Shown piece after piece: positions 4,769 through 56,153 of a stretch of 64,000 nucleotides of DNA; the first letter of the stretch is position 1; each line of letters opens with the position of its first letter. The stretch comes from Candidatus Nomurabacteria bacterium. Its GTDB lineage: Bacteria; Patescibacteriota; Minisyncoccia; Phycocordibacterales; UBA9973. The stretch lies in NCBI GenBank assembly GCA_963832025.1, contig CAWHSF010000003.1, forward strand, positions 207,665 through 271,664. The letters are read 5' to 3'. Position numbers and translations under genes: made by a program. The notes under the pieces were generated by a model. The model saw only the letters and a list, made by a program, of their open reading frames with translations. It had not been told where the DNA came from and made no database searches.

Positions 4769-6154
4769 ATGTCAAAAAGAAATTTTATACTTTTAATAAT
4801 CGTTCTCATTATCATCATCCTTGCTGTTTTTGGATTTTTGTTTTTCAACAAGCCAAGTGGTCAATCAGGAGGGAACACAACTGGCACAAATTTCTTTTCG
4901 CAATTTAATCCTTTTGCAAATGTCAAACCAAAAACACCGGTAACGACACCAGTGCAAACGCCGACAACGACACCAACGACAACTTCAACTCTTAATTTAA
5001 AACTGAAAGAAGTTTCCAGTATGCCAATAGCGGGTTTTACGATATTCAGCAAAGAAAGGTTGGTGCCAGTGGTAACAGCTACGACATCTTCAACCACCCC
5101 GCCTTCGGCACCCCTCCTTAATCAAGGAGGGGAAGGGGGTGGTAATTCTTCTTCCGCAACAAAAAAAACAACTATTAAAACAACCAAGCCAACTGCGCCA
5201 CCGACGGAAATGGCTCTAGCGTTAAGGTATGCTGCCAAGGCAACAGGAAATATTTATGAAACCTTTGCAGACACAATACAAGAAGGTCAATTTTCAACGA
5301 CAACAATCCCTGAAGTTTACGATGCTTATTTTGGAAACAACGGAAACTCGGTGGTGATGAGATACTTATCAGGAGACGAAGAAACGATTGAAACTTTTCT
5401 CGGAACATTACCAAAAGAAATTTTTGGTGCAGACACAATCGCCAACAATCAAATCACAGGGTCGTTGTTACCAAATAATATAAAAAGTATTAGTTTGTCA
5501 CCTGATACATCAAGCATGTTTTATTTATTTGACAGTGGAGACAGCATGATAGGCACAACTCTTAATTTTACAACCAATAAAAAAGTGCAAATTTTTACTT
5601 CTCCATTTACTGAATGGTCTTCCGGTTGGGGAAACAGTAAAATCATTACTCTTACCACAAAACCTACTTCGGGAATTCCCGGATATGTTTATGAAATGGA
5701 TCAAACTGGAAAAAATTTAAACCAGACTTTGGGAAACATTAATGGGCTTACCGCCTTACCTAGCCCGGACGGAAAATTTATACTTTATGGTGACAATAGT
5801 TTAAATTTAAATATTTACAATAAAAGCACCAATACTTCGACTTTGTTGGGAGTTAAAACTCTACCAGAAAAATGTGTCTGGAACAGTGGAAGTACCACAG
5901 TGTATTGCGCTGTACCAAAAGCTATCCCAGTAAACCAGTATCCGGATGCTTGGTATCAAGGAGAAGTTTCTTTTAATGATCAATTTTGGAAAATTAATGT
6001 TGGGACCGGAAACACCACTATGCTTGTAGACCCGATCACAATGCCCGGAGGGCAAGAAATTGATGGAATCAAACTTGCGGTAGATAGCGCTGAAAATTAT
6101 TTATTTTTTGTAAACAAAAAAGATTCTTATCTTTGGGAATTTTCTCTTAAATAG
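4769..6154 (+). CDS. membrane-anchored exported protein with Thr/Pro-rich linker and beta-propeller-like C-terminal part (hypothetical)
   Basis: 461-aa ORF; N-terminal TM LLIIVLIIIILAVFGFLFF; TPVTTPVQTPTTTPTTT linker; TolB-like PDGKFILYGDNS segment. Confidence 0.5.
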   Translation: MSKRNFILLIIVLIIIILAVFGFLFFNKPSGQSGGNTTGTNFFSQFNPFANVKPKTPVTTPVQTPTTTPTTTSTLNLKLKEVSSMPIAGFTIFSKERLVPVVTATTSSTTPPSAPLLNQGGEGGGNSSSATKKTTIKTTKPTAPPTEMALALRYAAKATGNIYETFADTIQEGQFSTTTIPEVYDAYFGNNGNSVVMRYLSGDEETIETFLGTLPKEIFGADTIANNQITGSLLPNNIKSISLSPDTSSMFYLFDSGDSMIGTTLNFTTNKKVQIFTSPFTEWSSGWGNSKIITLTTKPTSGIPGYVYEMDQTGKNLNQTLGNINGLTALPSPDGKFILYGDNSLNLNIYNKSTNTSTLLGVKTLPEKCVWNSGSTTVYCAVPKAIPVNQYPDAWYQGEVSFNDQFWKINVGTGNTTMLVDPITMPGGQEIDGIKLAVDSAENYLFFVNKKDSYLWEFSLK

Positions 6155-6647
6155 TTCCGATATATTTTATGACCACGCGGCGGGAAGGACCAAAACCGAT
6201 TGATTCGGTTTTTAAGTCAGTCGCATCGGACAAAAACTCATGGACAATTCTACGTTCAAAAGCCGACATTGGATCAACTTCAATATTTGATTTAAAGTAT
6301 CTTGCTCGCTCGGACATCATGTGAGCTACCGCACGGACACTTTCTATTCGTTTTTTTTGAAAACCATTTATATCAATAAGAATATTATTGAAGCCATTTT
6401 CTGTAGTTACTTCTGCTTCAACTCCATTTCTGGTCGGAGAAGTTTTAGCTTCAATAATCCTATGAACCAAGTGGTTAAGCGCATGCAACCCTTCGGCGTC
6501 ACGAGAAATAAAAAAATGCGGTTCGCTGACTTCTAAAGAGAACAAAGTATTCTTGGGACCGTCTTCGGTAATCTCAACTCCATTTAGTTTTATGGTTGTT
6601 TTTTCGATTAGTTCTTTTATTAATTTTTGTATTTCATTTTTGTCCAT
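6147..6647 (-). CDS. jag: Jag/KhpB-type RNA-binding protein (KH + R3H)
   Basis: C-terminal R3H-like ERRIVHEFLSD; located downstream of yidC as in the canonical operon. Confidence 0.7.
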   Translation of the reverse strand: MDKNEIQKLIKELIEKTTIKLNGVEITEDGPKNTLFSLEVSEPHFFISRDAEGLHALNHLVHRIIEAKTSPTRNGVEAEVTTENGFNNILIDINGFQKKRIESVRAVAHMMSERARYFKSNIEVDPMSAFERRIVHEFLSDATDLKTESIGFGPSRRVVIKYIGTI

Positions 6648-6686
6648 ATTTTTATCAAAAATTTAATCCGTTGTTTATTTCATCAA

Positions 6687-7463
6687 CTATTTTCCTTTAT
6701 CCATTTTTTCCATTTCTTCTAAAATAACTTTTGACTCCATTTTTACCATTTGAGGATTAAATTCTTTCTTTTTGATATAAATCTGTTGCCCAACCATAAA
6801 CAAATTGCTGGTAATCCAATATAAAGAAATCGCTCCAGAAATATTGTAAGCAATAAAGGCAACTAAAAAGGGGAAAACATATTTCATTTGCATATTCATG
6901 CTCTTGCCAAAACTATCTTGAAAAGAAGGACTCCTCCCTCCGGAAATAACCGGTTTTGGCATAAAATGTGCCTGCAGTGACTGAGAAATTCCAGCCAGAA
7001 TTGCTAAAATCAAGCTTTTTTTACCGATATCGACAATTCCTAGGAAAATCATATTAATGTGCGCGGGAACGTGAACAAAAGAATAAAGCACTCCGTTTTG
7101 AAAATGGATTCCTTTTAGGAAAACATAATACAAAGCAAAAATAATTGGGATTTGGATTAGAACCAAAAGACAGCCGGAAAATGGATTGGTTTTGTATTTT
7201 TTGTAAAGTTCAAAGGTGCGCGTAGCTTGTTCCTCTTTACTTGCTCCACTTTCTTTTATTTTCTGTAATTCCGGAGCAAGAATATTCATTTGAGCCTGAC
7301 TTTCAATGGATTTTCTGGAAAGCGGGAAAAGTATAACTTTCACAAGAATGGTAAGCACTATGACAGCAATCCCGACATCTCCGCCGGGGATAATTGACAC
7401 CAAAAAAGCCAAGGCATTTAATAGTGGCTGATATAAGATAAGGTTCCAGATATGACTAATCAT
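6687..7463 (-). CDS. yidC: membrane protein insertase YidC/Oxa1 family
   Basis: 258-aa polytopic ORF in rnpA-yidD-yidC synteny; YidC-like core helices. Confidence 0.85.
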   Translation of the reverse strand: MISHIWNLILYQPLLNALAFLVSIIPGGDVGIAVIVLTILVKVILFPLSRKSIESQAQMNILAPELQKIKESGASKEEQATRTFELYKKYKTNPFSGCLLVLIQIPIIFALYYVFLKGIHFQNGVLYSFVHVPAHINMIFLGIVDIGKKSLILAILAGISQSLQAHFMPKPVISGGRSPSFQDSFGKSMNMQMKYVFPFLVAFIAYNISGAISLYWITSNLFMVGQQIYIKKKEFNPQMVKMESKVILEEMEKMDKGK

Positions 7464-7493
7464 CCTCTCATTCTATATGAAAACATGTAAAAA

Positions 7494-7709
7494 TCAAAGC
7501 ACAGGGTCAATATGATTTTTTTGCCAAGGATGGCAACGCAAAATTCGCAAAAAGCCAAGATAACTTCCTTTTAATATTCCGTATTTTTCTACCGCTTGTT
7601 TGGTGTATTCGGAGCAAGAAGGATAAAACACACAACTTGGTTTTATAAAAATAGAAATATTTTTTTGGTAAAAATCAATTAATTTTAGAAAGTATTTTTT
7701 TAATTTCAT
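7494..7709 (-). CDS. yidD: membrane protein insertion efficiency factor YidD
   Basis: CVFYPSCSEYTKQAVEKYG...RILRCHPW motif. The ORF is open to 7769, but an internal Met (MKLKKYF) is the likely start. Confidence 0.75.
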   Translation of the reverse strand: MKLKKYFLKLIDFYQKNISIFIKPSCVFYPSCSEYTKQAVEKYGILKGSYLGFLRILRCHPWQKNHIDPVL

Positions 7710-8001
7710 TTTCAATGATTGAAGCATCGTCTTGGTATTTTTTAAAAATAAATACACCCAAGGTGCCAAGAGGGAATTGCTTCAGATGTTTTTCCAAAGC
7801 AATATATCCGCGTCTTCTCAATAAATTCCTTTTAACCGCAAGCCTAGCAACATTTTTTGGCGCAATAAAAGAAATCCGCAAAGTTGTAGAATTTAGATTT
7901 TTTATGTATTTAAAGGTTAAATTATCGGAATTTAAAAATTTTCCTTCTTTAAAGATTTGATTTACCGCCTTTCTGTCGGCTCTATTTTTTTTCTTTAGCA
8001 T
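7675..8001 (-). CDS. rnpA: ribonuclease P protein component
   Basis: 108-aa basic ORF directly downstream of rpmH; RNase P protein-like RLAVKRNLLRRR. Confidence 0.8.
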   Translation of the reverse strand: MLKKKNRADRKAVNQIFKEGKFLNSDNLTFKYIKNLNSTTLRISFIAPKNVARLAVKRNLLRRRGYIALEKHLKQFPLGTLGVFIFKKYQDDASIIENEIKKILSKIN

Positions 8002-8024
8002 TACTTGTCCCGCTAAGGCGTGGA

Positions 8025-8159
8025 TTAAACAGTGAGTTTTGCTCGTCTTTTTTGACGTCTCTTTTTTAAGACTCTTTTTCCGTTTTTGGTTCTAGATCTG
8101 ACCAGAAATCCGTGAGACTTGGCTCTTTTTCTCTTTTTTGGTTGGTATGTTTGTGACAT
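8025..8159 (-). CDS. rpmH: 50S ribosomal protein L34
   Basis: Hand translation gives [44 protein letters not shown] (44 aa). It is below the ORF-track length cutoff. Confidence 0.9.
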
Positions 8160-8285
8160 ATAGTAGAGTCTATAATATAATGGGGAATAAATCAATTATG
8201 GAAAATTTTTTATCCACAGATTATCAACATAGTTAATAAGTTTCTTTAGATGTCATCTAAAACAGAAAGAGTATAATATGGAACT
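8160..8285. other. putative oriC segment / dnaA promoter region with DnaA boxes
   Basis: Perfect TTATCCACA at 8210-8218 and TTATCAACA at 8221-8229. TATAAT at 8272-8277 lies 8 nt before dnaA ATG. Genes diverge from this point. Confidence 0.55.
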
Positions 8286-9626
8286 ATGAATACGAAACAA
8301 CTTTGGAAAAATTGCTTAGCGGAAATCGAAACTGGTATATCAAAAGCAAATTTCAGCACTTGGTTTAAAAACACCTCTATTGTAAGAGAAGATACCGGCA
8401 TTATCTATATTGGAGTACCAAATGAGTTCGTTCGTGACTGGCTAATGAATAAATACCACAAACTTATCACCAAAACCATCGCGGATGAATACGAAAATAT
8501 GCGCGCCGTGGAATATACGATTTCTAAAATAGAAAACCTGAGCCAAGAAGTAACCATCACGAAAGAAACTATTGAAAAAGAACTGCCCTTGAAGGATTTA
8601 TACATTAATCCAGAAGATAATTTAAACCCACGCTACCATTTCAATTCTTTTATCGTGGGAACTTTCAACGAACTTGCCTATGCAGCGGCACAAGCAATCA
8701 TAGAATCTCCCGGAACTAAATATAACCCGTTCTTCATTTACGGAGGCACCGGATTGGGGAAAACTCACCTGATTCAAGCGGTTGGGAACTCCATCAAAGA
8801 AAAATATCCAAATAAAAAAGTTCATTATATGACCTTGGAAAAATTTGCGACAGATTTTATAAATTCTCTGCAAAACAACAAAGCAAACTCCTTTAAAGAA
8901 AAATATCGCAAATACGACCTTTTAATCATAGATGACATTCAATTTATCGGGAAAATGGAAAAAATCCAAGAGGAACTTTTCCACACATTCAACACTTTTT
9001 ACGAAAACAACAAACAAATTATTTTTTCTTCCGACAAACACCCCAATTACATTCCGGAGTTGGCCGATCGTTTAAAATCTCGTTTTGCCGCCGGTATGAT
9101 TGTAGACATTTCGGAACCGGAATATGAGTCTCGTTTAGCAATCTTGAAAGTGAAACTGCGAGAACAAAACATTGAATTAGAAGAAGAACTTGTTGAATAT
9201 GTCGCAAGCTCCGTGCAGGGAAATATTCGCGAGCTAGAGGGGAGTTTAAATCTTATCGTTTGCCAATATCGCTTGAAAAATAAGCCTCTAACGCTCCTCG
9301 AGGTGAAAAACTTGTTAAAAAACAACATGAAACCCAAAAAGAATATGGCCATCAAAGATGTTGTAAAAATTGTGAGTGAATATTATAAACTTGAAGAACT
9401 CTCTGTTTATGAAAAGACTAGAAAAAAAGAAATAGTTAAGGCTAGGCAGATTGTGATGTATCTGCTCCGAGAAGACTTTAATGTTTCTTATCCTTTGATT
9501 GGACAAAAGCTAGGAGGGAAAGACCATACCACGGTTATACACTCTTGTTTAAAAATTAAAAAAGATTTAAAGAACGACCCACAACTTTTGCAAGAACTGG
9601 AACAAATAAGGATAATGTTCAAATAG
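8286..9626 (+). CDS. dnaA: chromosomal replication initiator DnaA
   Basis: 446 aa; AAA+ Walker A GGTGLGKTHL; C-terminal DNA-binding domain (...GGKDHTTVIHS...). Confidence 0.95.
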   Translation: MNTKQLWKNCLAEIETGISKANFSTWFKNTSIVREDTGIIYIGVPNEFVRDWLMNKYHKLITKTIADEYENMRAVEYTISKIENLSQEVTITKETIEKELPLKDLYINPEDNLNPRYHFNSFIVGTFNELAYAAAQAIIESPGTKYNPFFIYGGTGLGKTHLIQAVGNSIKEKYPNKKVHYMTLEKFATDFINSLQNNKANSFKEKYRKYDLLIIDDIQFIGKMEKIQEELFHTFNTFYENNKQIIFSSDKHPNYIPELADRLKSRFAAGMIVDISEPEYESRLAILKVKLREQNIELEEELVEYVASSVQGNIRELEGSLNLIVCQYRLKNKPLTLLEVKNLLKNNMKPKKNMAIKDVVKIVSEYYKLEELSVYEKTRKKEIVKARQIVMYLLREDFNVSYPLIGQKLGGKDHTTVIHSCLKIKKDLKNDPQLLQELEQIRIMFK

Positions 9627-9841
9627 ATTTGGTAACTTGTTGAAAAGATGTTAAAGAAAATTGATAAGAAGTGATTTTAAAATTTAAAAATTTTTAAAGA
9701 CAAAACAAATAAAAGTTATTAGACCCAGAATAAAAATAAAAAACAAAAAAACCCCTAATAAATATTACTAATTAAAGTATTCCACTTATCAACAGAACTA
9801 ATATTATTAATAATTTATATATAAAAGATATAAACAAATAT
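9627..9841. other. AT-rich dnaA-dnaN spacer, putative DNA unwinding element / oriC segment
   Basis: 215 bp, almost entirely A/T. DnaA-box-like TTATCAACA at 9786-9794, adjacent to TATTCCACT. Confidence 0.45.
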
Positions 9842-10939
9842 ATGAAACTAGAATGTTCAATTGAAAAAATTAAAAACGCGGTTGCTCAAGTGGAAAGAAT
9901 AACCGGGAAAAATTTAACCTTACCAATACTTAGTTCGGTTTTACTTATTGCATCTTTAAAATCTTTAAAGTTAAGGTCTACGAACTTAAGTCTTGGTATT
10001 GAAATAGAAATTCCCGCAAAAATAGATCGTGAAGGGACCCTGGCTATTTCTGGTTCGGTTTTAAATTCAATTTTTTCAAATGTTTCCCAAAATGAAAATG
10101 TAAATTTAGAAGAAAAGGATGGAAATTTACTTATTAAAACAAATAAGACTCAAATAAGACTCAAAAGTCAGCCCCATGAAGATTTTCCGACAATCCCGAC
10201 GGTAAACGGAACCAGTTTTGAAATAGAATCAAAAAAATTAATCGATGGGATAAAATCGGTTTATTACAGCTCTTCTGTTTCAGACATAAAACCGGAAATT
10301 TCAAGTGTTTTTATTTATACAAATAATGACAACCTGGTTTTTGTCTCTACAGACTCTTTCAGATTAGCGGAAAAGAAAATTAAAACTAAAGGAGTTCCCG
10401 AAATTTTGGGCATCCTTATTCCCTTTAAAAACATTACCGAAATATTAAAGATTTTTGGCGAACTTCAAGGTTTAATAAAAGTTTGTTTCAATAAAAACCA
10501 AATTTCTTTTTCCACGGAAAATATTTATTTAACTTCCAGGGTAATTGATGGAATTTTCCCGGACTACCGTCAAATTATTCCCAAAAATTTTACCACGGAA
10601 ATTGTTGTTCTAAAGCAAGACTTGCTAAATGCGCTTAAACTTTCGAATATATTTTCTGACAAATTCAACCAAGTTAATCTCAAGGTTCTTCCAAAAGAAA
10701 AGATTTTTGAGCTTTCTTCAGCAAACAACGATATTGGAGAAAACAAAACTTATTTAGATGCGGTGATAAAAGGAGAAAACATTGAATTAGGCTTCAATTA
10801 TAAATACTTTTGGGATTGTTTCGTTTCTATTACTACCGACAGTGTTTCTATAAGATTATCCGGAAGTGGCAAACCAATAGTTGTTTCTCCTGTTTCTGAC
10901 CCATTATTTACTTATCTCATCATGCCGATGAATAAATAA
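9842..10939 (+). CDS. dnaN: DNA polymerase III beta sliding clamp
   Basis: 365-aa ORF immediately after dnaA; clamp-like length and C-terminus (...YLIMPMN). Confidence 0.9.
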   Translation: MKLECSIEKIKNAVAQVERITGKNLTLPILSSVLLIASLKSLKLRSTNLSLGIEIEIPAKIDREGTLAISGSVLNSIFSNVSQNENVNLEEKDGNLLIKTNKTQIRLKSQPHEDFPTIPTVNGTSFEIESKKLIDGIKSVYYSSSVSDIKPEISSVFIYTNNDNLVFVSTDSFRLAEKKIKTKGVPEILGILIPFKNITEILKIFGELQGLIKVCFNKNQISFSTENIYLTSRVIDGIFPDYRQIIPKNFTTEIVVLKQDLLNALKLSNIFSDKFNQVNLKVLPKEKIFELSSANNDIGENKTYLDAVIKGENIELGFNYKYFWDCFVSITTDSVSIRLSGSGKPIVVSPVSDPLFTYLIMPMNK

Positions 10940-10953
10940 AAACTTAAAATTTA

Positions 10954-11023
10954 TCCCGTACTAAATTTTAATTAAAACAAATGAACACTATTATTAAAAA
11001 TTTAAAATTTTAGTACCGGGATG
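10954..11023 (+). repeat. intercistronic hairpin cassette, family G copy 1 (3' arm ends on ATG 11021)
   Basis: Left arm TCCCGTACTAAATTTTA (10954-10970). Right arm TAAAATTTTAGTACCGGGA (11003-11021), followed by TG. Starts 15 nt after the dnaN stop. Confidence 0.7.
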
Positions 11024-11278
11024 ATTGAAATAAAAGATTTACTTAGTCGTTTTAGTGAAATTCTTCTAGGGGAAGAAGGGAAAAAAGAAGCTGTTAGAGA
11101 CGTAATTTCGTCTGTTATTCAGGTAAAAATAAAATCTGAAGATATAAAAATAAAAAATAATATTATTTATTTAAACATCAAACCTATTTACAAAAACGAA
11201 ATTTTTATTAAACAAGAAAAAATTTTTCTCGCACTAAAAGAAGCTCTCGGTAAAAAAGCACCAGAAAGTCTTAGGTAA
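11021..11278 (+). CDS. small protein, possibly DUF721/DciA-like
   Basis: 85-aa ORF after dnaN. The position and the C-terminal pattern (NNIIYLNIKPIYKNEIFIKQEKIFLALKEALG) resemble DUF721. Weak call. Confidence 0.35.
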   Translation: MIEIKDLLSRFSEILLGEEGKKEAVRDVISSVIQVKIKSEDIKIKNNIIYLNIKPIYKNEIFIKQEKIFLALKEALGKKAPESLR

Positions 11279-19469: not shown

Positions 19470-19937
19470 ATGACTAGCGGAATAAAAAAAATATCGAAAA
19501 GCGTAAAAGAAACAAGTAAAATAGCAAAAATATTTATTGAAGAAGTTCTGAAAAATAGCAAAACCGACCAAGGCGCTTTTGTGGTTGGCTTGGTTGGGAA
19601 TTTAGGGGCAGGCAAGACAGCTTTTGCGCAAGCTGTCGCCAAACACCTGGGAGTAAAAAATAAAGTTAGTAGTCCAACTTTTGTAATTATGAAAAAATAT
19701 CCCCTAAAAAAAAATCAGAAAAATAAAAAATATGACTTTTTATTTCACTTAGATGCTTATCGCCTAAAAAATGAGCAAGAATTATTGTATTTGGGGTGGC
19801 AAGAAATTTTAGACAACGAGAAACACCTTGTCTTTATTGAATGGCCGGAAAATGTATCCAAAGTTATGCCAAAAAATATCAAGTATATTCATATTTCCGA
19901 CCAAAAAGATGGGCAAAAAGTTTTCAAATTTAAATGA
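19470..19937 (+). CDS. tsaE: tRNA t6A37 biosynthesis ATPase TsaE
   Basis: P-loop GNLGAGKTAF; SPTF motif; HLDAYRL. Confidence 0.8.
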   Translation: MTSGIKKISKSVKETSKIAKIFIEEVLKNSKTDQGAFVVGLVGNLGAGKTAFAQAVAKHLGVKNKVSSPTFVIMKKYPLKKNQKNKKYDFLFHLDAYRLKNEQELLYLGWQEILDNEKHLVFIEWPENVSKVMPKNIKYIHISDQKDGQKVFKFK

Positions 19938-19943
19938 TATAAT
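19935..19943 (+). promoter_or_regulatory. extended -10 box TGaTATAAT upstream of polA
   Basis: Overlaps the tsaE stop codon. Followed by the family H hairpin and then ATG 19993. Confidence 0.4.
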
Positions 19944-19947
19944 TCCA

Positions 19948-19981
19948 CTTGTTGGACAACAATTTCCCGTTGTTCGACAAG
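19948..19981. repeat. family H palindromic repeat (degenerate copy) in polA leader
   Basis: CTTGTtggACAACaatttcccGTTGTtcgACAAG; compare 39233-39268 and 53515-53551. Confidence 0.55.
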
Positions 19982-19992
19982 AAAGACAAAAA

Positions 19993-22434
19993 ATGAAAAC
20001 GGAAAATAAAAATTCAACTAAAACAATGGTCCTATTAGATGCTCACGCGATAATACATCGCGCCTATCATGCGTTGCCGGAGTTTTTATCATCCAGCGGT
20101 GAACCTACTGGCGCTCTGTACGGGCTTTCCAGCATGTTGATGAAAATTATCACCGAACTCAAACCGGACTATATTGCTGCTTGTTATGATTTGCCGCAAA
20201 AAACTTTTCGTCACGAAGCTTATGATGCCTACAAAGCTGGCCGGGCAAAAACAGATGAAGCACTGGTGGTGCAACTAAAAAAATCCAGACAAATTTTTGA
20301 AGCTTTCAACATACCTATTTATGATGCCCCTGGTTTCGAGGCGGATGATGTTTTGGGAACAATCGTTGAAAAATATAAAAAAGACAAAAGCATCAATATC
20401 ATTATCGCTTCTGGAGACATGGATACGATGCAGTTGGTTGATGATAAGAAAGTTCAAGTTTACACTCTAAAAAAAGGAATCAATGAAACCATTTTATATG
20501 ACGAAGATGCAGTAATGGAACGTTTCCATTTCAAACCGAAACTTTTGCCGGACTACAAAGGTTTGCGTGGCGACCCATCGGATAACATTATTGGCATAAA
20601 AGGCATTGGAGAAAAAACAGCGGAAAATTTAATTGTCAATTTTGGAACCATCGAGGAAATATATAAAAAAATAAAAAAAGACAAAGAAGCTTTCGTGAAA
20701 GCAAACATAAGCCTCAGAATAATTGAATTATTGAAAGAGAACGAAGAGGAAGCTCTGTTTTCAAAAACATTAGCGACCATTCGCAAAGATGCGCCGATAA
20801 ATTTTACATTACCGGCAAAAACTTTTTGGGAAAACATTGACTCTAAAAAAGTGGAACAAGTTTTCATGGATTTTGAGTTTAAAAGTTTGATGGCTCGCTT
20901 GAAGAATTTTTTTAGCGAGAATTCGACGGGTGTTGCTCAGAGGAGTCTTCGCAACGACCAGAAAGAACTTGCCCTTCCAGGACGGGGTGCGAACGACGGC
21001 GAGCAATATCCACCGAATTCTCAAATCATTAATCCTCAAAAGTTGCAAGAAGCCAGCATTGTTCTTTGGCTCATCAATTCCGATATTTCTACTCCTGGCT
21101 TAGAAGATATGTATTTCTTTGCAAAGACTGAGTCTTTTGATGTGGCTTATGAGTACATTTTTAAACAGCTAAAAGAAAGAAAGTTAGATAAAGTATATGA
21201 AGAAATCGAAAAACCGATTATTGGTGTCGTAAAAAAGATGGAAGATTTTGGAATTCTGATAGATAAAAAATATTTTGAAAAATTATCTCTTGAATACCAC
21301 AAAGAATTGGATATTTTGACCAAAAACATTTACAAAATGGCTGGAACAGAATTTAATATTAATTCTCCAAAACAGCTAGGCGAAATTCTTTTTGGTAAGC
21401 TTGGCATGAAATCTGGTAAGAAAAAAAGTGCCAATGGTAGTTTTTCCACCAAGGTTTCCATTCTGGAAGACCTTGCCGAAGAAAATGAAATTATTAAAGA
21501 AATTTTAGCTTACAGAGAGTTACAGAAATTGCTTTCTACCTACGTTGATGTCATTCCAAAAATGGCAGGGCCAGATGGACGACTGCATTCAAAATTTATA
21601 CAAAATGCCACTACAACTGGCAGGTTTTCTTCAATTGACCCAAACTTGCAAAATTTACCAATTAAAACAGAATTAGGTAGAAGAATCCGTGGTGGTTTCG
21701 TAGCTTCCAAAAATCATAAGCTAGCAGCTTTTGATTATAGCCAAATTGAATTACGGGTGGCAGCGATACTTTCCGGAGACAAAAACATGACTGAAATATT
21801 CCGTGACCGCAAAGACATTCATGCCGGAGTCGCCTCTTTTGTTTTTGGTGTGCCGATAGAGCGTGTTGATAGTGAAATGCGTCGCCGAGCAAAAGTCATC
21901 AACTTTGGCATTATTTACGGCATGGGGGTTTCTGCCTTACGAAAAAATCTGGGAGGTACCCGTGAAGAAGCGCAAAAATTTTACGATAATTATTTTAATC
22001 AATTTTCTGGAGTGCGAGATTATTTAGAAAGCGTGAAAATGTTTGCTGCTAAAAATTCCTTTACAGAGACATTGTTTGGTCGTAGGCGTTACTTCCCAAA
22101 TATCAATTCCCGAATTCCTTTTTTGAAAAACACGGCTGAACGTACTGCGACCAATGCTCCACTGCAAGGCACAGCCGCTGATATTATCAAACTTGCTATC
22201 AGATACGCTGAAGAAGATTTAAATAAAAAAGGATTGCTTTCGAAAGTTCATCTCGTGCTTCAAATCCATGATGAACTGGTTTACGAAATAGAAGATGATG
22301 TTTTAGAAGAGGCTGATAAAATAATAAAGCAGGCGATGGAAGAGGTGCTAGAAAGATCATATTTGCATTACAAAACAGACATTCCTTTACTGGTTCGCTC
22401 TGGTTTTGGTGACAATTTTGGGGAAGTAAAATAA
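19993..22434 (+). CDS. polA: DNA polymerase I (5' nuclease + polymerase domains)
   Basis: 5'-nuclease N-terminus (LLDAHAIIHRAYHAL); polymerase motifs DYSQIELRV and QIHDELV. The ORF is open from 19828, but ATG 19993 follows tsaE. Confidence 0.9.
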   Translation: MKTENKNSTKTMVLLDAHAIIHRAYHALPEFLSSSGEPTGALYGLSSMLMKIITELKPDYIAACYDLPQKTFRHEAYDAYKAGRAKTDEALVVQLKKSRQIFEAFNIPIYDAPGFEADDVLGTIVEKYKKDKSINIIIASGDMDTMQLVDDKKVQVYTLKKGINETILYDEDAVMERFHFKPKLLPDYKGLRGDPSDNIIGIKGIGEKTAENLIVNFGTIEEIYKKIKKDKEAFVKANISLRIIELLKENEEEALFSKTLATIRKDAPINFTLPAKTFWENIDSKKVEQVFMDFEFKSLMARLKNFFSENSTGVAQRSLRNDQKELALPGRGANDGEQYPPNSQIINPQKLQEASIVLWLINSDISTPGLEDMYFFAKTESFDVAYEYIFKQLKERKLDKVYEEIEKPIIGVVKKMEDFGILIDKKYFEKLSLEYHKELDILTKNIYKMAGTEFNINSPKQLGEILFGKLGMKSGKKKSANGSFSTKVSILEDLAEENEIIKEILAYRELQKLLSTYVDVIPKMAGPDGRLHSKFIQNATTTGRFSSIDPNLQNLPIKTELGRRIRGGFVASKNHKLAAFDYSQIELRVAAILSGDKNMTEIFRDRKDIHAGVASFVFGVPIERVDSEMRRRAKVINFGIIYGMGVSALRKNLGGTREEAQKFYDNYFNQFSGVRDYLESVKMFAAKNSFTETLFGRRRYFPNINSRIPFLKNTAERTATNAPLQGTAADIIKLAIRYAEEDLNKKGLLSKVHLVLQIHDELVYEIEDDVLEEADKIIKQAMEEVLERSYLHYKTDIPLLVRSGFGDNFGEVK
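20917..21022 (+). repeat. family A palindrome-ended repeat, in-frame inside polA
   Basis: TIR GAGAATTCG...CGAATTCTC. The core matches the reverse complement of 24739-24830. Confidence 0.8.
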
Positions 22435-23699: not shown

Positions 23700-25949
23700 A
23701 TGCAAAAAAATATTTTTAAATTAAAGAATTTATGGGAACCAGCGGGGGATCAGCCGAAGGCTATTTCTAAGCTGGTAGAAGGTTTAGAGAAGGGAATGAA
23801 GAAACAAACATTGTTGGGCGCAACCGGAACTGGCAAAACTTTTACCATGGCCAATGTCATTGCGCAGTACAACAAACCGACGCTCGTAATAGCTCACAAC
23901 AAAACTCTGGCTGCCCAGCTCGCGCAAGAATTTCGCCAGTTTTTCCCCGATGCGGCCGTGCATTATTTTGTTTCTTATTATGACTATTATCAACCGGAAG
24001 CATATATGCCTGCTTCGGATACTTATATCGAAAAAGATGCTTCCATCAATAAAGAAATAGATATGCTTCGTCACGCCAGCACACAAGCATTACTTACCAG
24101 GCGTGACGTGATTATCGTCGCTTCGGTTTCCTGTATTTATGGGCTGGGTTCTCCCGAAGAATATGAAAAAGTAAATTTAAAACTTGAACTTGGCATGAAA
24201 CTGGACCGCATGACTTTAATGAGAAAACTGATTGAGATTCATTTTGAAAGAACCAACGCGGATTTGAGTCCAGGGCAATTTCGTTCGATTGGTTCGCGAG
24301 TGGAATTTATGCCGGTGTCGGAGACTGTCATGTATCAAATAGAATTTGGAACGTCGGACCTTAAGGGGATTCAAGGTCCGACGTTAACAAAAATAATCAA
24401 AGTTGATCCGGTATCCTCGAAAATAATCGAAGAAATAAAACCCGCCGAAGGACGGGCAGGCATTTTCATTTTTCCGGCAAAACATTTTATTACTGAAGAA
24501 GTAAAAAAGCAAAAGGCATTGATTGAAATTAAAAAAGAATTAAATAAACAATTGAAAAAATTTGAAAAAGAAGGAAAGTTGCTCGAAGCTGAGCGTATTA
24601 AGAGAAGAACAAACTATGACCTAGCGATGATTCGCGAAGTTGGTTATTGCAACGGCATCGAAAATTATTCTCGGCATCTGTCGGGTAAATTGGAAGGTGA
24701 ACCGCCAGAAACTCTGCTTTCATATTTTCCGCATAGGGCTCGAGATTATTCTCGCCGTCGTTCGCACTCCGTCCTGGAAGGGCAAGAAAGTTCTGGTCGC
24801 AACGAAGACTCCTCTGAGAACAATCTCGAACCCGATTTCCTTACGATTATAGATGAATCGCATGTTACACTTCCGCAACTGCAAGGCATGTATGCCGGAG
24901 ATGCTTCCAGAAAAGAAACCCTAGTAGAATATGGATTCAGATTGCCATCAGCTAAGGACAACAGACCCCTTAAATTTAATGAATTTGAAGAAAGAATAAA
25001 TAATGTAATTTATACTTCTGCCACACCTGGAGAATTTGAAAGATCTAATAGTAATCAAACAGTAGAACAGATAATCAGACCCACTGGTTTGGTTGATCCA
25101 GAAATAGAAGTAAAGTCGGTAAGCGAAAAAGAAGATTACAAGGGCCAAATTCAAGATTTTATTTTTGAGACAGAAAAAACAATCAAAAAAGGTTTCCGCG
25201 TTTTAGCGACCACCCTCACAAAAAAAATGGCGGAGGACCTCTCAACATATTTGAAGGATAAAAAAATCAAAGCGGAATATTTACATAGTGATATAAAAAC
25301 AATGGAACGAATAAAAATTCTCACTCAGTTTAGAAAAGGAGAATTTGATGTTTTGGTTGGAGTAAACTTACTTCGCGAGGGACTTGATTTACCTGAAGTT
25401 GCTTTAATCGGTATTTTAGATGCTGATAAATCCGGATTTTTACGTTCGGAAACAGCGCTAGTGCAAACCATCGGTCGCGCAGCCAGAAATAGCGAAGGAA
25501 AAGTTATTCTATATGCGGACATCATGACTCCGGCCATGGAATATGCTATTTCCGAAACTACTCGCCGGAGAAATATTCAGCTTGCTTATAATAAAAAACA
25601 TGGTATCACTCCGAAGACAATTATGAAAAAGATAAATGACATTACCGAAGAGTTGGAAAGTGAACATGGGAAAACAGTGAATGCGGAATTAAACCTTGAT
25701 TTGGAAGTTTTCAAACGAGCTTACGCCAAAGAGTTAAAATTAGACAAAAGTAAACTAACAAAAAAGAATGGACTAACTGAAGTTAAATTACACATGTCCG
25801 ACGAAGAGAGAAGCAACTTAGTCTATGAAAAAATAATAAAAATCAAGGAAAAAGAAATGAGTAAAGCAGTTAAAGAATTGGATTTCGAAACCGCAGCGAT
25901 TCTGCGTGATGAAATTGGAGTTTTGAAATTACGTTTGGAGAAAAAATAA
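23700..25949 (+). CDS. uvrB: excinuclease ABC subunit B
   Basis: GATGTGKTF; DESHVTLPQ; helicase C motifs; C-terminal UVR domain (FETAAILRDEI). Carries three inserted repeat segments. Confidence 0.95.
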   Translation: MQKNIFKLKNLWEPAGDQPKAISKLVEGLEKGMKKQTLLGATGTGKTFTMANVIAQYNKPTLVIAHNKTLAAQLAQEFRQFFPDAAVHYFVSYYDYYQPEAYMPASDTYIEKDASINKEIDMLRHASTQALLTRRDVIIVASVSCIYGLGSPEEYEKVNLKLELGMKLDRMTLMRKLIEIHFERTNADLSPGQFRSIGSRVEFMPVSETVMYQIEFGTSDLKGIQGPTLTKIIKVDPVSSKIIEEIKPAEGRAGIFIFPAKHFITEEVKKQKALIEIKKELNKQLKKFEKEGKLLEAERIKRRTNYDLAMIREVGYCNGIENYSRHLSGKLEGEPPETLLSYFPHRARDYSRRRSHSVLEGQESSGRNEDSSENNLEPDFLTIIDESHVTLPQLQGMYAGDASRKETLVEYGFRLPSAKDNRPLKFNEFEERINNVIYTSATPGEFERSNSNQTVEQIIRPTGLVDPEIEVKSVSEKEDYKGQIQDFIFETEKTIKKGFRVLATTLTKKMAEDLSTYLKDKKIKAEYLHSDIKTMERIKILTQFRKGEFDVLVGVNLLREGLDLPEVALIGILDADKSGFLRSETALVQTIGRAARNSEGKVILYADIMTPAMEYAISETTRRRNIQLAYNKKHGITPKTIMKKINDITEELESEHGKTVNAELNLDLEVFKRAYAKELKLDKSKLTKKNGLTEVKLHMSDEERSNLVYEKIIKIKEKEMSKAVKELDFETAAILRDEIGVLKLRLEKK
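24350..24385. repeat. 36-bp perfect hairpin in-frame inside uvrB
   Basis: AACGTCGGACCTT-aaggggattc-AAGGTCCGACGTT (13-bp perfect arms); encodes GTSDLKGIQGPT. Confidence 0.7.
24441..24460. repeat. short GC-rich hairpin in-frame inside uvrB
   Basis: CCCGccgaaggaCGGGcagg encodes PAEGRAG; shares its terminal CGGGCAGG with the yebC insert. Confidence 0.35.
24739..24830 (-). repeat. family A palindrome-ended repeat, in-frame inside uvrB (inverted relative to polA copy)
   Basis: TIR CTCGAGATT...AATCTCGAA. Encodes ...RARDYSRRRSHSVLEGQESSGRNEDSSENNLEP between conserved YFP and DFLTIIDESH. Confidence 0.8.
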
Positions 25950-36557: not shown

Positions 36558-36660
36558 GCTCAAAATATATTTTATAAAGCAATCTATCTCCGCAAGCTTG
36601 CGGAGCGAACCTGCTCGGCTACCCGCCTGCGCAAGACTTTCTAAAACATATTTTCTGAGC
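36558..36660 (+). repeat. family F intergenic palindromic element, copy 2
   Basis: Outer TIR GCTCAAAATATATTTTATAAAG / CTTTCTAAAACATATTTTCTGAGC. Inner palindrome CTCCGCAAGCTTGCGGAG (36588-36605). The core is identical to copy 1. Confidence 0.75.
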
Positions 36661-45034: not shown

Positions 45035-48000
45035 TTATTCTTGTACTGTTGTTGTGGTAGTTTTCTTTCCGAGAGGTTGATGATCTACAACAGTGGTAGT
45101 TCTTTTGATAAAAGGAGCTGTGGGCGGTGGAAGATATGCTGGATTTATTTTTCTTTGTCCGTAAATATATTTTGCTAACAATATCAATATAAGAATAAGT
45201 ATGATTATGATAAGCCAACCAAATATATTTGTCGGGAAGAAGCCAGCTCCGAAAGCGAATGCTCCAAGAGGGGAGGTCGTTCCGGTTGTTGCACTCCATA
45301 CTTGAGCGGAAACATTCGCATTGACTGATTGAGAATTACCGGAAGGGTCAACATAGTTTAAGGTTGCAGGGAAGTTGAGCAATGTGCCTGCGGTTGCGTC
45401 GCTGTTTACCTGTGTTTTTACTGTTACCACACCGGAAGCTCCTCCTCTAAGTGTTCCCAAGTTGAATACCAAAGTATTTCCGAGAACATTAGGATTGATT
45501 GGGTTCGATGAAAGATAAGTTACTTCTTGTGGCAACACTAACTGCAAACTTAGATTGGTAGCAGATCCTGTTCCGACATTTTGATAATTTATAGTGTAAT
45601 TAATTTCATCTCCTGGGTGTGGTCTGGTGTTGTCAATTGTAGGAACAATCGGTTGGTCTCTATTTACCGAAGAAGTAATAAGAAGAAGTGAACTTGCAGC
45701 TGTCCTGTTTACATATCTGATTACTGTCGTCGGACTCTGTGCCCCAGTTGTGGTAAAGCTTAATATATAACCATTACTACTTTGATAGGAATCTTGCGCA
45801 ATTGCTCGGAAGTAATAAGTTGTTCCAGGGCTTAATCCACTCAATGTGTCTGTGTGTATAACCGATGGCAATGTTCCGACAGCTGTGGTTGTAGTCGTAT
45901 TTCCCAAATTTATAGTTGGGCCCCACTCAAACCAAGCATTTATTGGGCTGGAATCAGAACTGCTAATTAAGGAGTTCAATTGTGCACTGGTGCTTAATAC
46001 TTGTGTTGCTTGCGTGGTGACGACACTTAGATTGCTTGCTATTGGTTGTGGATATATTGGTGTTGGAACGGGATATACCGGAACTATTGGTTGATAGTTT
46101 TGATTTACATAAACAGTGGTTGAACCAGTCGCTTGCTGTCCGGTGCTACTAGTACAAACAATATTGTAAGTAGTTGTATAAGTTAGAGCTCCAGTAGTTA
46201 TACTGCCGGAAGTACTTTGTGTTCCGGAAAGTCCATTGTAACCACCAGTAATACTACAATAACTTGCGTTAGTTGAGTTCCAAGAAATAATACTGGAACC
46301 ATTATAGTTGACACTGGAAGGATTTGCGTAAATGTTGACGGTAGGTTGCAAAATTTGATTTTGATTTACATAAACAGTGGTTGAACCAGTCGCTTGCTGT
46401 CCGGTGCTACTAGTACAAACAATATTGTAAGTAGTTGTATAAGTTAGAGCTCCAGTAGTTATACTGCCGGAAGTACTTTGTGTTCCGGAAAGTCCATTGT
46501 AACCACCAGTAATACTACAATAACTTGCGTTAGTTGAGTTCCAAGAAATAATACTGGAACCATTGTAGTTGACACTGGAAGGATTTGCGTAAATGTTGAC
46601 GGTAGGAATCTGGTTTTGAATTTGATTTACCGACACCGTCGCTGAAGCACTTACTTGTGTTCCATTGGTTCCATAACAAGTAATTGAATAGGTTGTAGTT
46701 CCACTTGGTACTACAACTCCGGAACCACTAGTTGCTGTACTGGAAGTCCAGTAAGCCTGACAAGATGTTGCGTTATTTGAACTCCAAGTAAGTGTAGAGT
46801 TTGCTCCGGATTGGATGGAAGTTGGGTTGGCGTAAAGAGAAACGGTTGGGTTTTGATATTGAATCTGATTTACCGACACCGTCGCTGAAGCACTTACTTG
46901 TGTTCCATTGGTTCCATAACAAGTAATTGAATAGGTTGTAGTTCCACTTGGTACTACAACTCCGGAACCACTAGTTGCTGTACTGGAAGTCCAGTAAGCC
47001 TGACAAGATGTTGCGTTATTTGAACTCCAAGTAAGTGTAGAGTTTGCTCCGGATTGGATGGAAGTTGGGTTGGCGTAAAGAGAAACGGTTGGGTTTTGAT
47101 ATTGAATCTGATTTACCGACACCGTCGCTGAAGCACTTACTTGTGTTCCATTGGTTCCATAACAAGTAATTGAATAGGTTGTAGTTCCACTTGGTACTAC
47201 AACTCCGGAACCACTAGTTGCTGTACTGGAAGTCCAGTAAGCCTGACAAGATGTTGCGTTATTTGAACTCCAAGTAAGTGTAGAGTTTGCTCCGGATTGG
47301 ATGGAAGTTGGGTTGGCGTAAAGAGAAACGGTTGGGTTTTGATATTGAATCTGATTTACCGACACCGTCGCTGAAGCACTTACTTGTGTTCCATTGGTTC
47401 CATAACAAGTAATTGAATAGGTTGTAGTTCCACTTGGTACTACAACTCCGGAACCACTAGTTGCTGTACTGGAAGTCCAGTAAGCCTGACAAGATGTTGC
47501 GTTATTTGAACTCCAAGTAAGTGTAGAGTTTGCTCCGGATTGGATGGAAGTTGGGTTGGCGTAAAGAGAAACGGTTGGGTTTTGAATCTGTTGCGCTGCT
47601 ACTGTTACCGTCGCATATGCGGAAGCTTGTGCTCCGGTACTGCTGGTACAAGTAAGATTGTAAGAAGTTGTATTAGCTAAAGCTCCAGTATTAAAACTAC
47701 CGGAAGTATTTTGATTTCCTCCCCAACCATTTGTACCACCACTTGCGATGCAAGATGTTGCGTTGGTGGAATTCCAAGTTAAGATACTTGTTCCATTGTA
47801 AGCTACGGAAGTTGGATTAGCGGAAAGAGAAACTGTCGGCTGAACCTGACCACTCACTGACACCGTCGCATAGGCGGAAGCTTGTGCTCCGGTACTGCTG
47901 GTACAAGTAAGATTGTAAGAAGTTGTATTAGCTAAAGCTCCAGTATTAAAACTACCGGAAGTATTTTGATTTCCTCCCCAACCATTTGTACCACCACTTG

Positions 48001-48967
48001 CGATGCAAGAAGTTGCGTTAGTAGAATTCCAAATTAACGTACTTGTTCCATTGTAAGCTACGGAAGTTGGATTAGCGGTTAAACTGACAGTTGGGGTTTT
48101 TATCTGTTGAGTTACCGACACCGTCGCTGAAGCACTTACTTGTGTTCCATTGGTTCCATAACAAGTAATTGAATAGGTTGTAGTTCCACTTGGTACTACA
48201 ACTCCGGAACCACTAGTTGCTGTACTGGAAGTCCAGTAAGCCTGACAAGATGTTGCGTTATTTGAACTCCAAGTAAGTGTAGAGTTTGCTCCGGATTGGA
48301 TGGAAGTTGGGTTGGCGTAAAGAGAAACGGTTGGGTTTTGAATCTGTTGCGCTGCTACTGTTACCGTCGCATATGCGGAAGCTTGTGCTCCGGTACTGCT
48401 GGTACAAGTAAGATTGTAAGAAGTTGTATTAGCTAAAGCTCCAGTATTAAAACTACCGGAAGTATTTTGATTTCCTCCCCAACCATTTGTACCACCACTT
48501 GCGATGCAAGATGTTGCGTTGGTGGAATTCCAAGTTAAGATACTTGTTCCATTGTAAGCTACGGAAGTTGGATTAGCTGTAAGGTTAACGGTTGGTGTAA
48601 CTACAGTAGGTTGGCAAGAAGCGGTAGTAAAAGAAACCATACTTCCGGACCATGATCCTTGAGGGGCATTGTTGAATTCTGTTTCATAATAATATGTAGT
48701 GTTTTGAGTGAGACCATTTATTACGGCACTGAAATCCGAATACGCAGTATAAGTTTGAGGAGTCGTGGAATATCCGAGAGATGGAGTAGGTCCCCATTCA
48801 AACCAAGCTGAAGTCGGAGTTCCGTTTGGACTTACGTAGCCATTTAAGGTTGCGCTGTTGCAAGTCTGCACTTGATATTGTGCTGCTGCTTTGTTTACAT
48901 TAATAAAAAGCCCGAAAACGGTAACGAAAACGATAAACATGGATATTGATAACTTTTTCATATTCAT
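45035..48967 (-). CDS. giant cell-surface repeat protein (signal peptide, FN3-like ends, 10 Ig-like tandem repeats, DUF11-like domain, C-terminal TM anchor)
   Basis: 1310 aa. N-terminal MNMKKLSISMFIVFVTVFGLF. Two ...WFEWGPT... modules. Three repeat types (A x3, B x5, C x2). C-terminal WLIIIILILILILLAKY anchor. Confidence 0.8.
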   Translation of the reverse strand: MNMKKLSISMFIVFVTVFGLFINVNKAAAQYQVQTCNSATLNGYVSPNGTPTSAWFEWGPTPSLGYSTTPQTYTAYSDFSAVINGLTQNTTYYYETEFNNAPQGSWSGSMVSFTTASCQPTVVTPTVNLTANPTSVAYNGTSILTWNSTNATSCIASGGTNGWGGNQNTSGSFNTGALANTTSYNLTCTSSTGAQASAYATVTVAAQQIQNPTVSLYANPTSIQSGANSTLTWSSNNATSCQAYWTSSTATSGSGVVVPSGTTTYSITCYGTNGTQVSASATVSVTQQIKTPTVSLTANPTSVAYNGTSTLIWNSTNATSCIASGGTNGWGGNQNTSGSFNTGALANTTSYNLTCTSSTGAQASAYATVSVSGQVQPTVSLSANPTSVAYNGTSILTWNSTNATSCIASGGTNGWGGNQNTSGSFNTGALANTTSYNLTCTSSTGAQASAYATVTVAAQQIQNPTVSLYANPTSIQSGANSTLTWSSNNATSCQAYWTSSTATSGSGVVVPSGTTTYSITCYGTNGTQVSASATVSVNQIQYQNPTVSLYANPTSIQSGANSTLTWSSNNATSCQAYWTSSTATSGSGVVVPSGTTTYSITCYGTNGTQVSASATVSVNQIQYQNPTVSLYANPTSIQSGANSTLTWSSNNATSCQAYWTSSTATSGSGVVVPSGTTTYSITCYGTNGTQVSASATVSVNQIQYQNPTVSLYANPTSIQSGANSTLTWSSNNATSCQAYWTSSTATSGSGVVVPSGTTTYSITCYGTNGTQVSASATVSVNQIQNQIPTVNIYANPSSVNYNGSSIISWNSTNASYCSITGGYNGLSGTQSTSGSITTGALTYTTTYNIVCTSSTGQQATGSTTVYVNQNQILQPTVNIYANPSSVNYNGSSIISWNSTNASYCSITGGYNGLSGTQSTSGSITTGALTYTTTYNIVCTSSTGQQATGSTTVYVNQNYQPIVPVYPVPTPIYPQPIASNLSVVTTQATQVLSTSAQLNSLISSSDSSPINAWFEWGPTINLGNTTTTTAVGTLPSVIHTDTLSGLSPGTTYYFRAIAQDSYQSSNGYILSFTTTGAQSPTTVIRYVNRTAASSLLLITSSVNRDQPIVPTIDNTRPHPGDEINYTINYQNVGTGSATNLSLQLVLPQEVTYLSSNPINPNVLGNTLVFNLGTLRGGASGVVTVKTQVNSDATAGTLLNFPATLNYVDPSGNSQSVNANVSAQVWSATTGTTSPLGAFAFGAGFFPTNIFGWLIIIILILILILLAKYIYGQRKINPAYLPPPTAPFIKRTTTVVDHQPLGKKTTTTTVQE
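46101..46622 (-). repeat. 2 x 261-bp near-identical tandem coding repeat (type C)
   Basis: tgatttacataaacagtggttgaacc... recurs at 46101 and 46362. Confidence 0.85.
46624..47585 (-). repeat. 4 x 243-bp tandem coding repeat (type B), apparently identical at nucleotide level
   Basis: gatttaccgacaccgtcgctgaagc... starts at 46624, 46867, 47110 and 47353. Units 2 and 3 read identical by eye. Confidence 0.9.
47586..48600 (-). repeat. interleaved type A / type B repeat units (A3, A2, B1, A1) with long identical stretches
   Basis: ttgaatctgttgcgctgctactgttaccgtcgcatatgcgg occurs near 47580 and again near 48320. Confidence 0.75.
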
Positions 48968-55758: not shown

Positions 55759-55905
55759 AAATTTGGACAAACGAAAAAGCCACAGAGACTCTTCCTAAAT
55801 AATTTAGATAAATCTAAGTGACTTGTGTGATTTGCTTCCGATTGGAAGAAATGTGGGCTTTGGGGGTCCGCGGCGGACCCCCAGTCCCGTGTTCCGCGCC
55901 TTCAG

Positions 55906-56040
55906 CTAGTCGGCCGGCTCGGTGTTGTCAGCGCAGAAGTTGGTGTTGAGGCCGGTGCTACCGCGGGTGTCGGTGAGGCCTTCGCATACGACATTGGCAT
56001 TCGGGTTGGCGCAGGAGGCGCCGAGACAGCGTTTGTTCAT
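55906..56040 (-). CDS. 44-aa Cys-containing peptide encoded in a high-GC islet (foreign-looking)
   Basis: MNKRCLGASCANPNANVVCEGLTDTRGSTGLNTNFCADNTEPAD. 35 of 43 codons after ATG end in G/C. AAGGAG lies 7 nt upstream of ATG. GC stem-loop GGGGGTCCG-cgg-CGGACCCCC lies downstream. Confidence 0.5.
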   Translation of the reverse strand: MNKRCLGASCANPNANVVCEGLTDTRGSTGLNTNFCADNTEPAD

Positions 56041-56153
56041 GGTGTTGCTCCTTGGGGAGAGGCTACCTTCTCGACTCCATAAAACTGGAAGGAACTCTCA
56101 GATAGAGAGTAATATATTTCTCTCCAACATACAAATAAGTTATCCCCACCTAT

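Follow-up and report, generated by a model that had tools for sequence, protein, structure and literature searches.

The RPE of Rickettsia, palindromic elements that lie within reading frames, are reportedly the 'protein-coding palindromes' described by Ogata et al. in 2000 and 2002. They are repeats of 100-150 bp that occur in frame in Rickettsia open reading frames (ORFs), are found at orthologous sites across species and decay there (PMC10969869; PMC1779305). Here we analyse a comparable element, family A, in a 64-kb stretch of DNA from a Candidatus Nomurabacteria bacterium (64,000 nucleotides, referred to throughout as the window), where one copy splits the DNA repair gene uvrB directly in front of the codons for helicase motif II and a second lies in polA. 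The simplest account, drawn by analogy, would be that family A is an RPE-like, non-autonomous protein-coding palindrome, and we lean towards reading the uvrB segment as a translated, largely passenger palindromic insertion that is maintained at the DNA level. No description of such elements in the candidate phyla radiation (CPR) or in Parcubacteria was found in the literature searched; in-frame coding palindromes, regarded so far as peculiar to Rickettsia and a few mitochondria, are now seen in a CPR lineage.

Like the RPE, family A is a palindrome in the range of about 100-150 bp, lies in frame in a reduced, AT-rich genome and would be read through in translation. In both cases there are several families, orthologous sites are used across species, copies decay, and the positions taken are compatible with protein folding. 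The likeness is one of description, and the RPE belong to Rickettsiales whereas family A belongs to Paceibacterota within the CPR. RPE number in the dozens, whereas scans with an exact 22-25-nt core pattern find one to three family A copies per genome; RPE hosts are described as unrelated genes together with intergenic DNA, whereas the roughly ten host sites of family A are skewed towards repair genes, with only two intergenic copies. Unlike the RPE, family A carries copy-specific, paired outer stems around a conserved core, and its cores are homogenised within genomes. The coding palindromes of nematomorph mitochondria (PMC6649704) are also long inverted repeats in translated sequence that are gained and lost between species, and the identity of their arms is apparently actively maintained, for which template switching or repeat conversion has been proposed. 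There, however, both arms encode conserved protein, the repeats are perfect and no family with a shared core exists, whereas family A adds a loop whose conserved centre is non-palindromic and whose arms are about 90% paired.

[quoted passage not shown] What characterises them, however, is a set of terminal inverted repeats that are conserved, along with target-site duplications, many copies and mostly intergenic locations, and family A has none of these. One report describes some of them (CREE) as affecting expression and as substrates of RNase III (PMC2649163). The REP and BIME elements are extragenic and of high copy number, unlike family A, about 48 of whose 50 copies are intragenic. The elements bypassed in translation (the T4 gene 60 gap; byp of Magnusiomyces mitochondria) are, like family A, short GC-rich hairpin inserts in AT-rich genomes, but they remain untranslated and need neither frame nor freedom from stop codons, whereas genic copies of family A are always in frame and open. 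Finally, the attC site of integrons is a recombination site recognised mainly as a folded, imperfect hairpin, in which pairing is conserved while sequence varies. Its ends are conserved and its centre is variable, the reverse of family A; attC sites also lie between cassettes and depend on an integrase, and no integrase was noticed here.

The insert in UvrB and the anatomy of family A

The product of the uvrB ORF matches protein P0001 at 100% and has the UvrB Pfam domains as well as the GTGKT and DESH motifs; its nearest relatives are UvrB proteins of metagenome-assembled genomes (MAGs) from Candidatus Paceibacterota, Nomurabacteria and Patescibacteria. Aligned by phmmer to the solved UvrB 9gy7_E (E=1.6e-224), it falls into two blocks, query 5-344 with 9gy7_E 4-330 and query 379-651 with 9gy7_E 332-598, and the insert alone interrupts the alignment. 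The translated ORF reads ...LLSYFP-HRARDYSRRRSHSVLEGQESSGRNEDSSENNLEP-DFLTIIDESH, with 34 residues immediately before motif II where the solved protein has one, and the frame is kept. This agrees with the original prediction of about 30 extra residues splitting YFP...DESH, although the bounds given then, 24739-24830, were slightly narrow (Table 1). The GC content of the insert is 52%, compared with 38% for the window. A surface loop at this position had also been raised as a possibility to check, and AlphaFold (85-sequence alignment; mean predicted local distance difference test score, pLDDT, of 67) predicts a disordered loop: residues 349-374, which follow a short helix and precede the strand of motif II, lack secondary structure and have pLDDT values under 50. 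Annotators of CPR proteins should expect inserts that inflate proteins and split conserved motifs in this way.

The insert contains a repeat that recurs in polA. Positions 24744-24818 pair with 20936-21010 over 75 nt at 85% complementarity and in opposite orientation, as originally proposed. Exactly two places in the window match a 31-nt core pattern, which never occurs in 100 shuffles, and nhmmer found no third copy in the 64 kb. The earlier description of the uvrB copy as the inverted one holds relative to polA but does not identify the atypical copy: judged against the approximately 50 copies found elsewhere, it is the polA copy that is flipped, the uvrB copy being in sense orientation as is usual. 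The latter (fold of -36.4 kcal/mol, z=-2.4) encodes an unrelated peptide, and it shares its polA site with sense copies of other genomes, the polA fragments P0121 and P0122 having the sense peptide at the same position. Either an inversion on the spot, with its own arms as the limits, or a separate insertion in the opposite orientation would account for this.

An element of family A is about 105 nt long and consists of a 68-nt core between outer arms of 16-20 bp; it can form a long hairpin with a 21-bp outer helix plus inner pairs. When 38 copies are anchored on the core (CTCKCCGTCGYTCGCAC..TGGAAGGGCAAG..TTCTGG..GCGAAKACTCCTCYGAG) they align without gaps, the boundary between core and arms is sharp, and the core ends are imperfect inverted repeats (CTCGCCGTCGTTCGC / GCGAAGACTCCTCTGAG). 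The arms, by contrast with this shared core, are free in sequence but paired. The inverted termini of the uvrB copy (24733-24753 / 24816-24836, 21 nt, 86% complementary) and of the polA copy (20917-20938 / 21001-21022, 22 nt, 82% complementary) are unlike each other in sequence, and 46 distinct arms occur among 47 copies; even so, the mean helix length is 17.7 bp, and it falls to 3.7 bp once the arms of different copies are combined. In the explicit structure, double changes are seen at 20 of the 21 outer pairs. Double-change cells number 277, compared with 83±8 after shuffling and 57-87 with partners slid, and 89.5% of cells are paired, compared with 33-42% with partners slid; RNAalifold is concordant. 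The proposal that self-complementary ends are maintained while their sequence drifts is thereby borne out well beyond the two copies on which it had been based. The inner helix is invariant and therefore uninformative on structure.

The arms seem to be part of the element rather than of its surroundings, because they share a loose consensus (TCAGGAnnATG, abutting the core) and because related arms occur at different sites: those of the window uvrB copy resemble the arms of a polA copy (L011), and the site-2 arms of one UvrB (L017) look like those typical of site 1. The 3' arm extends with its outer end into conserved host codons at both UvrB sites (PDF; YPGQI), to which the 5' arm is complementary. 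No target-site duplication was detected, the longest direct match between flanks being 3.47 nt as against 3.52 nt in a swapped control. A hairpin specific to one strand was rejected, since both strands fold equally well, with no significant difference in minimum free energy (MFE) between sense and antisense (20/38, p=0.11). Mismatches in the outer helix read on the sense strand are more often A·C (38) than G·T (15), where A·C corresponds to G·U on the antisense strand; this excess is unexplained. Rfam returned only five tRNAs for the whole window at the gathering threshold and no match for 24650-24920 at E<=10; a known RNA family, self-splicing intron or ribozyme was rejected on this lack of a match.

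Conservation of the core acts on nucleotides and not on the peptide, because four observations agree. First, core variability is flat over the three codon positions (0.68/0.56/0.55). Second, in the subfamily found in CCA-adding enzymes a length change of 1 nt causes the conserved 3' nucleotides to be read in another frame, which yields KLSQRRLLQ in the 3' half. Third, the flipped polA copy encodes its unrelated peptide. Finally, among ten genomes that share the UvrB site-1 copy, divergence is 19% in the core and 39% in the arms, compared with 65% at 4-fold degenerate sites of uvrB around the insert; the 3' part of the core, on which the search pattern did not select, has diverged by 16%.

Hosts, sites and turnover across genomes

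The collections scanned with the exact core pattern comprised 185,579 species genomes together with metagenomes, and the species-representative set excludes the window's own genome. The pattern was present in 18 stretches of the species-representative genomes and 35 of the metagenomes, two of these 35 being chance matches. Family A amounts to about 50 distinct copies, all in MAGs of Paceibacterota-type CPR bacteria, and four sibling loci fetched via their UvrB proteins have copies at both UvrB sites and in polA. Host genes, identified by BLAST and Pfam, encode UvrB (20 copies at two sites), PolA (13 at one site), a CCA-adding enzyme with a PolyA_pol head and an HD domain (10), UvrA (4 at two sites), UvrC (1) and RNase H (1). 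An exhaustive peptide-profile search of representative proteins gave nine matches, five of them true, and added a KsgA-type rRNA methyltransferase and the C-terminal tail of a glutamine amidotransferase (GATase), for a total of about ten host sites; this search is insensitive because one protein stands for each 50% cluster. The site in PolA is a linker and that in the CCA-adding enzyme a loop of the HD domain. One of the two copies outside genes lies just downstream of rnhA and antisense to it (L029), and the other is upstream of leuS in sense orientation (L007).

Within long ORFs, 47 of 48 copies are in sense orientation and in one common frame, which is the frame that gives the most hydrophilic peptide of the core. 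Insert lengths differ by whole codons, and the genic copies are free of stops in the host frame. UvrB relatives at 75-87% identity range in length from 701 to 792 aa. At site 1, the position of the window insert, a homologous segment with the motif RRSHS[VI]LEGQ..SG.SEDSSE is present in 37 of the 120 closest relatives; about half of the 120 have a short linker such as KTG and the others unrelated inserts. The comparison with sibling proteins thus also favours an insertion, as had been supposed, since a segment carried by 37 of 120 relatives is not a universal part of UvrB. At site 2, before Y.GQIQDF, 16 of the 120 have the family A element.

The distribution is patchy. In a neighbour-joining tree of UvrB, built with the insert columns removed, sequences with family A at either site are interspersed with others that have no insert or a different one. 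In other genomes the same two sites hold at least five unrelated GC-rich hairpin inserts, all in frame, with folds of -32 to -74 kcal/mol. One larger hairpin family occupies site 1 in L013 and site 2 in L020 (peptide ..GSLS..ALPL..CETP.., folds of -64 to -74 kcal/mol), and its arms resemble those of the window polA copy of family A (GAATTCG.G.GATA), a sequence likeness which hints that arms and cores may recombine as modules.

Cores evolve in concert within genomes: two cores of one genome differ at 5.3 positions on average, compared with 10.5 for same-site copies of different genomes. In L001 the two cores are identical and their arms unrelated. In L004 they are one difference apart and 16-17 differences from any orthologous copy, and the genome-specific changes reach a few bases into the arms, as conversion tracts would. 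The two window cores differ at 8 positions and each is nearer to an orthologue (4 and 6 differences). Between its polA region and uvrB, L004 has an island (5100-9900) that encodes a reverse transcriptase (RVT_1), a helix-turn-helix protein and a serine recombinase. The reverse transcriptase near uvrB prompted us to consider a diversity-generating retroelement, which was rejected by inspection: the positions at which copies differ are not confined to adenines, and there is no sign of a template repeat.

Decay is also visible. The short alleles PHTGSSEHAPD (L058) and PHIKDEDSFEYIPD (L059) were considered as empty hairpins awaiting a core and rejected as such, because they retain, in frame, the last 7-18 nt of the core together with the 3' arm; they are remnants of internal deletion.

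Origin and maintenance of the element

If family A is a translated passenger palindrome, the copy that sits in frame in a surface loop of UvrB before motif II would be read through by the ribosome, and UvrB would tolerate the resulting loop, which is hydrophilic, disordered and about 34 aa long. Translation of the insert is presumed here. As DNA, the element could be a self-maintaining palindrome whose arms stay complementary while their sequence changes, and whose core is copied between the copies of one genome by gene conversion or re-insertion. It may come to lie flipped at a site, as in the window polA, and would eventually be lost by in-frame internal deletions, so that survival would be limited to in-frame, hydrophilic copies in loops or linkers. 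The arms probably stay complementary because one is corrected to match the other, through template switching in a quasi-palindrome, because the hairpin is selected for, or for both reasons. The compensatory changes need not imply selection for a hairpin, because correction by template switching, proposed for the coding palindromes of nematomorph mitochondria (PMC6649704), would give the same pattern; such correction would also fit the equal fold stability of the two strands. Spread probably occurred via recombination or template switching and not by cut-and-paste transposition.

Several features sharpen the question of how such elements arise and persist, namely a conserved centre within a stem of free sequence but constant pairing and length, the homogenisation of cores, the flipped copy, the way in which unrelated hairpin families occupy the same protein loops again, and the concentration in UvrABC and PolA. 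Hundreds of related MAGs make gain, loss, conversion and inversion traceable as a natural experiment.

Other observations weigh against a mere passenger. Even in orthologous copies, evolution of the core is about 3.5-fold slower than that of 4-fold sites, in genomes whose synonymous positions have reached saturation, although a purely selfish or neutral copy should drift. Sense orientation prevails at about ten independent coding sites, and stop codons do not explain this bias, because a six-frame check across the core found three to six of the six frames open. Hosts are skewed towards enzymes of nucleic-acid repair and processing, and polA and uvrABC contain all five in-gene inserts seen in the window. 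Selfish repeats usually build up in intergenic DNA, yet only 2 of the roughly 50 copies are found there. Neither a mobilising enzyme nor a target duplication nor a parent element was found, and no parent insertion sequence (IS) was noticed in the fetched loci.

The slow core, the orientation bias and the concentration in repair genes therefore keep alive a cis-regulatory explanation, in which the core and hairpin form a signal used by the host, as mRNA structure or DNA cruciform, for the common regulation of uvrA, uvrB, uvrC, polA, rnhA and cca. The signal would lie in coding sequence because compact genomes have little intergenic room. We regard this as unlikely, if the most credible of the alternatives. 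It would account for purifying constraint that acts on core nucleotides independently of frame, for an outer stem that is uniform at 16-20 bp with its pairing preserved, and for a near-universal sense orientation that extends to the intergenic copy upstream of leuS; hosts that are mostly UvrABC, PolA, RNase H and CCA-adding enzyme, and a window in which every in-gene hairpin insert is in polA or uvrABC, would be expected as well. However, close relatives lack the insert or have unrelated hairpins at the same sites, and the in-frame deletion remnants (L058, L059) imply that it is dispensable. Copies also occur in KsgA and in the GATase C-terminus, while other repair genes of the window, such as fpg, are insert-free. 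The two strands fold equally well, and the wobble-type mismatches favour the antisense strand (38 vs 15). Moreover, with polA, uvrB, uvrA and uvrC physically clustered, the appearance of a functional link could result from local spread.

A classical MITE moved in trans by a transposase is slightly less plausible again. Its true termini would be CTCGCCGTCGTTCGC and GCGAAGACTCCTCTGAG, and the copy-specific arms would follow because it inserts into the loops of existing palindromes. The imperfect inverted repeats at the core ends and the sharp boundary between core and arms fit this, as do the identical cores with unrelated arms in L001 and the small hairpins and other cores that the same sites hold in other genomes. 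It is opposed by the lack of a target-site duplication (3.47 vs 3.52 in the control), by the one to three copies per genome, and by the absence of a parent IS from every fetched locus. The arms share the TCAGGAnnATG consensus and recur across sites, which suggests that they belong to the element, and in L004 changes extend into them as conversion tracts would; the short alleles of L058 and L059 that might have served as empty hairpin targets are deletion remnants.

It is also conceivable, and in our view rather improbable, that a CPR repair regulon exists in which the core signal is read by a factor that binds RNA or DNA structure, and in which hairpin-to-hairpin copying without a transposase has spread and homogenised the signal. 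If it is true that the repair-gene bias reflects function and not proximity, this would be an unrecognised coordination of repair genes in bacteria with minimal regulatory repertoires.

A functional peptide module, such as a phosphorylation or docking motif formed by the common loop RRSHS-LEGQ-SSGRSEDSSE, is very improbable. The common frame at about ten sites and the hydrophilic, Ser/Arg/Glu-rich character of the peptide, which is predicted to be exposed, point towards it. Third codon positions are nevertheless no more variable than first and second ones, the CCA-enzyme subfamily keeps the nucleotides while its peptide differs (KLSQRRLLQ), the peptide encoded by the window polA copy is unrelated, the insert is missing from many close relatives, and the exhaustive profile search yielded only five true representatives. 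Removal of the segment before the protein is made, by intron-like hairpin excision or translational bypass, has next to no likelihood: a stable hairpin does bring the junctions together, but every in-gene copy is a multiple of three and stop-free despite variation in length, which would be needless if it were excised or bypassed, no Rfam intron or ribozyme matches even at E<=10, and a group I or II intron would have to be longer than about 100 nt.

Other inserts and features of the window

Table 1. Positions of uvrB, of the two family A copies and of the other in-gene hairpin inserts in the window
Feature	Position	Strand	Remarks
Outer arm of polA copy	20917-20935	.	Pairs with 21004-21022
Second family A core, in polA (19828-22434)	20936-21003	-	Antisense to polA
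Outer arm of polA copy	21004-21022	.	Pairs with 20917-20935
uvrB host gene	23700-25949	+	749-aa ORF, intact apart from insert
34 extra codons of uvrB (aa 345-378)	24732-24833 (102 nt)	+	Between YFP and DFLTIIDESH; from phmmer and ORF
5' outer arm of uvrB copy	24733-24750	+	Copy-specific; pairs with 24819-24836
Family A core of uvrB copy	24751-24818	+	68 nt, CTCGCCGTCGTTCGCAC...CGAAGACTCCTCTGAG, sense; ungapped alignment of 38-47 copies
3' outer arm of uvrB copy	24819-24836	+	Copy-specific; outer end overlaps host codons P-D of PDFLT
Family B hairpin insert in uvrA	26509-26600	+	In frame; 22-nt arms, 95% complementary, 48 nt apart
Family B hairpin insert in uvrC	29195-29286	+	In frame; 25-nt arms, 100% complementary
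Second hairpin insert in uvrC, further family	29614-29701	+	In frame; 24-nt arms, 96% complementary, 40 nt apart

The census of hairpin inserts was drawn from the list of inverted repeats, as a sliding-window MFE scan proved too noisy. The five long-armed in-gene inserts are distributed over polA (20917-21022), uvrB (24733-24836), uvrA (one) and uvrC (two; gene identified by tblastn and ORF), and the remaining strong hairpins of the window are intergenic. Together the four genes account for about 15% of the window's coding DNA and form a physical cluster that is kept in siblings; fpg, another repair gene of the window, has no hairpin insert. The uvrA insert shares a 70-nt repeat with 29206-29275 in the first uvrC insert. 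This repeat is the core of family B, which has the same architecture as family A, with a conserved centre and differing outer arms.

Two of the repair genes have broken frames. uvrA is found in two overlapping ORFs of different frames (26060-26302 and 26256-28760), where an extra A in CTTAAATCAAATG (~26272-26276) breaks a conserved uvrA peptide, as either a real frameshift or an assembly error. In uvrC (28834-30121) the frame changes near 29805: AAGAATCAG runs to a stop, AAGATCAG would restore KFKIRTQDNSNDTGAL, and tblastn matches resume in another frame at 29774-30121. Both are +1 A events, in two nucleotide excision repair genes less than 4 kb apart.

Further repeats and a possible RNA lie elsewhere in the window. 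A segment of about 285 nt near a tRNA-Ser gene (55810-56094) reaches 72% GC (genome 38%) and is predicted to fold very stably, at -54.8 kcal/mol per 110 nt; it has no convincing ORF and no Rfam match at E<=1, and may be a structured RNA that is undescribed or divergent. Repeats of about 84 nt form an intergenic family at 30634-30717, 32682-32722 (inverted) and 36571-36654, and its hairpin shows compensatory differences between copies (CTGGCAAAGCTTTGCCAG vs CTCCGCAAGCTTGCGGAG). Tandem arrays of 243-nt and 261-nt units, five copies of each at 62-100% identity, extend over 46098-48608 and presumably encode a repeat protein. Finally, an AT-rich repeat of 86 nt with internal inverted arms occurs at 10939-11024 and, at 73% identity, between uvrA and uvrC (28752-28837).

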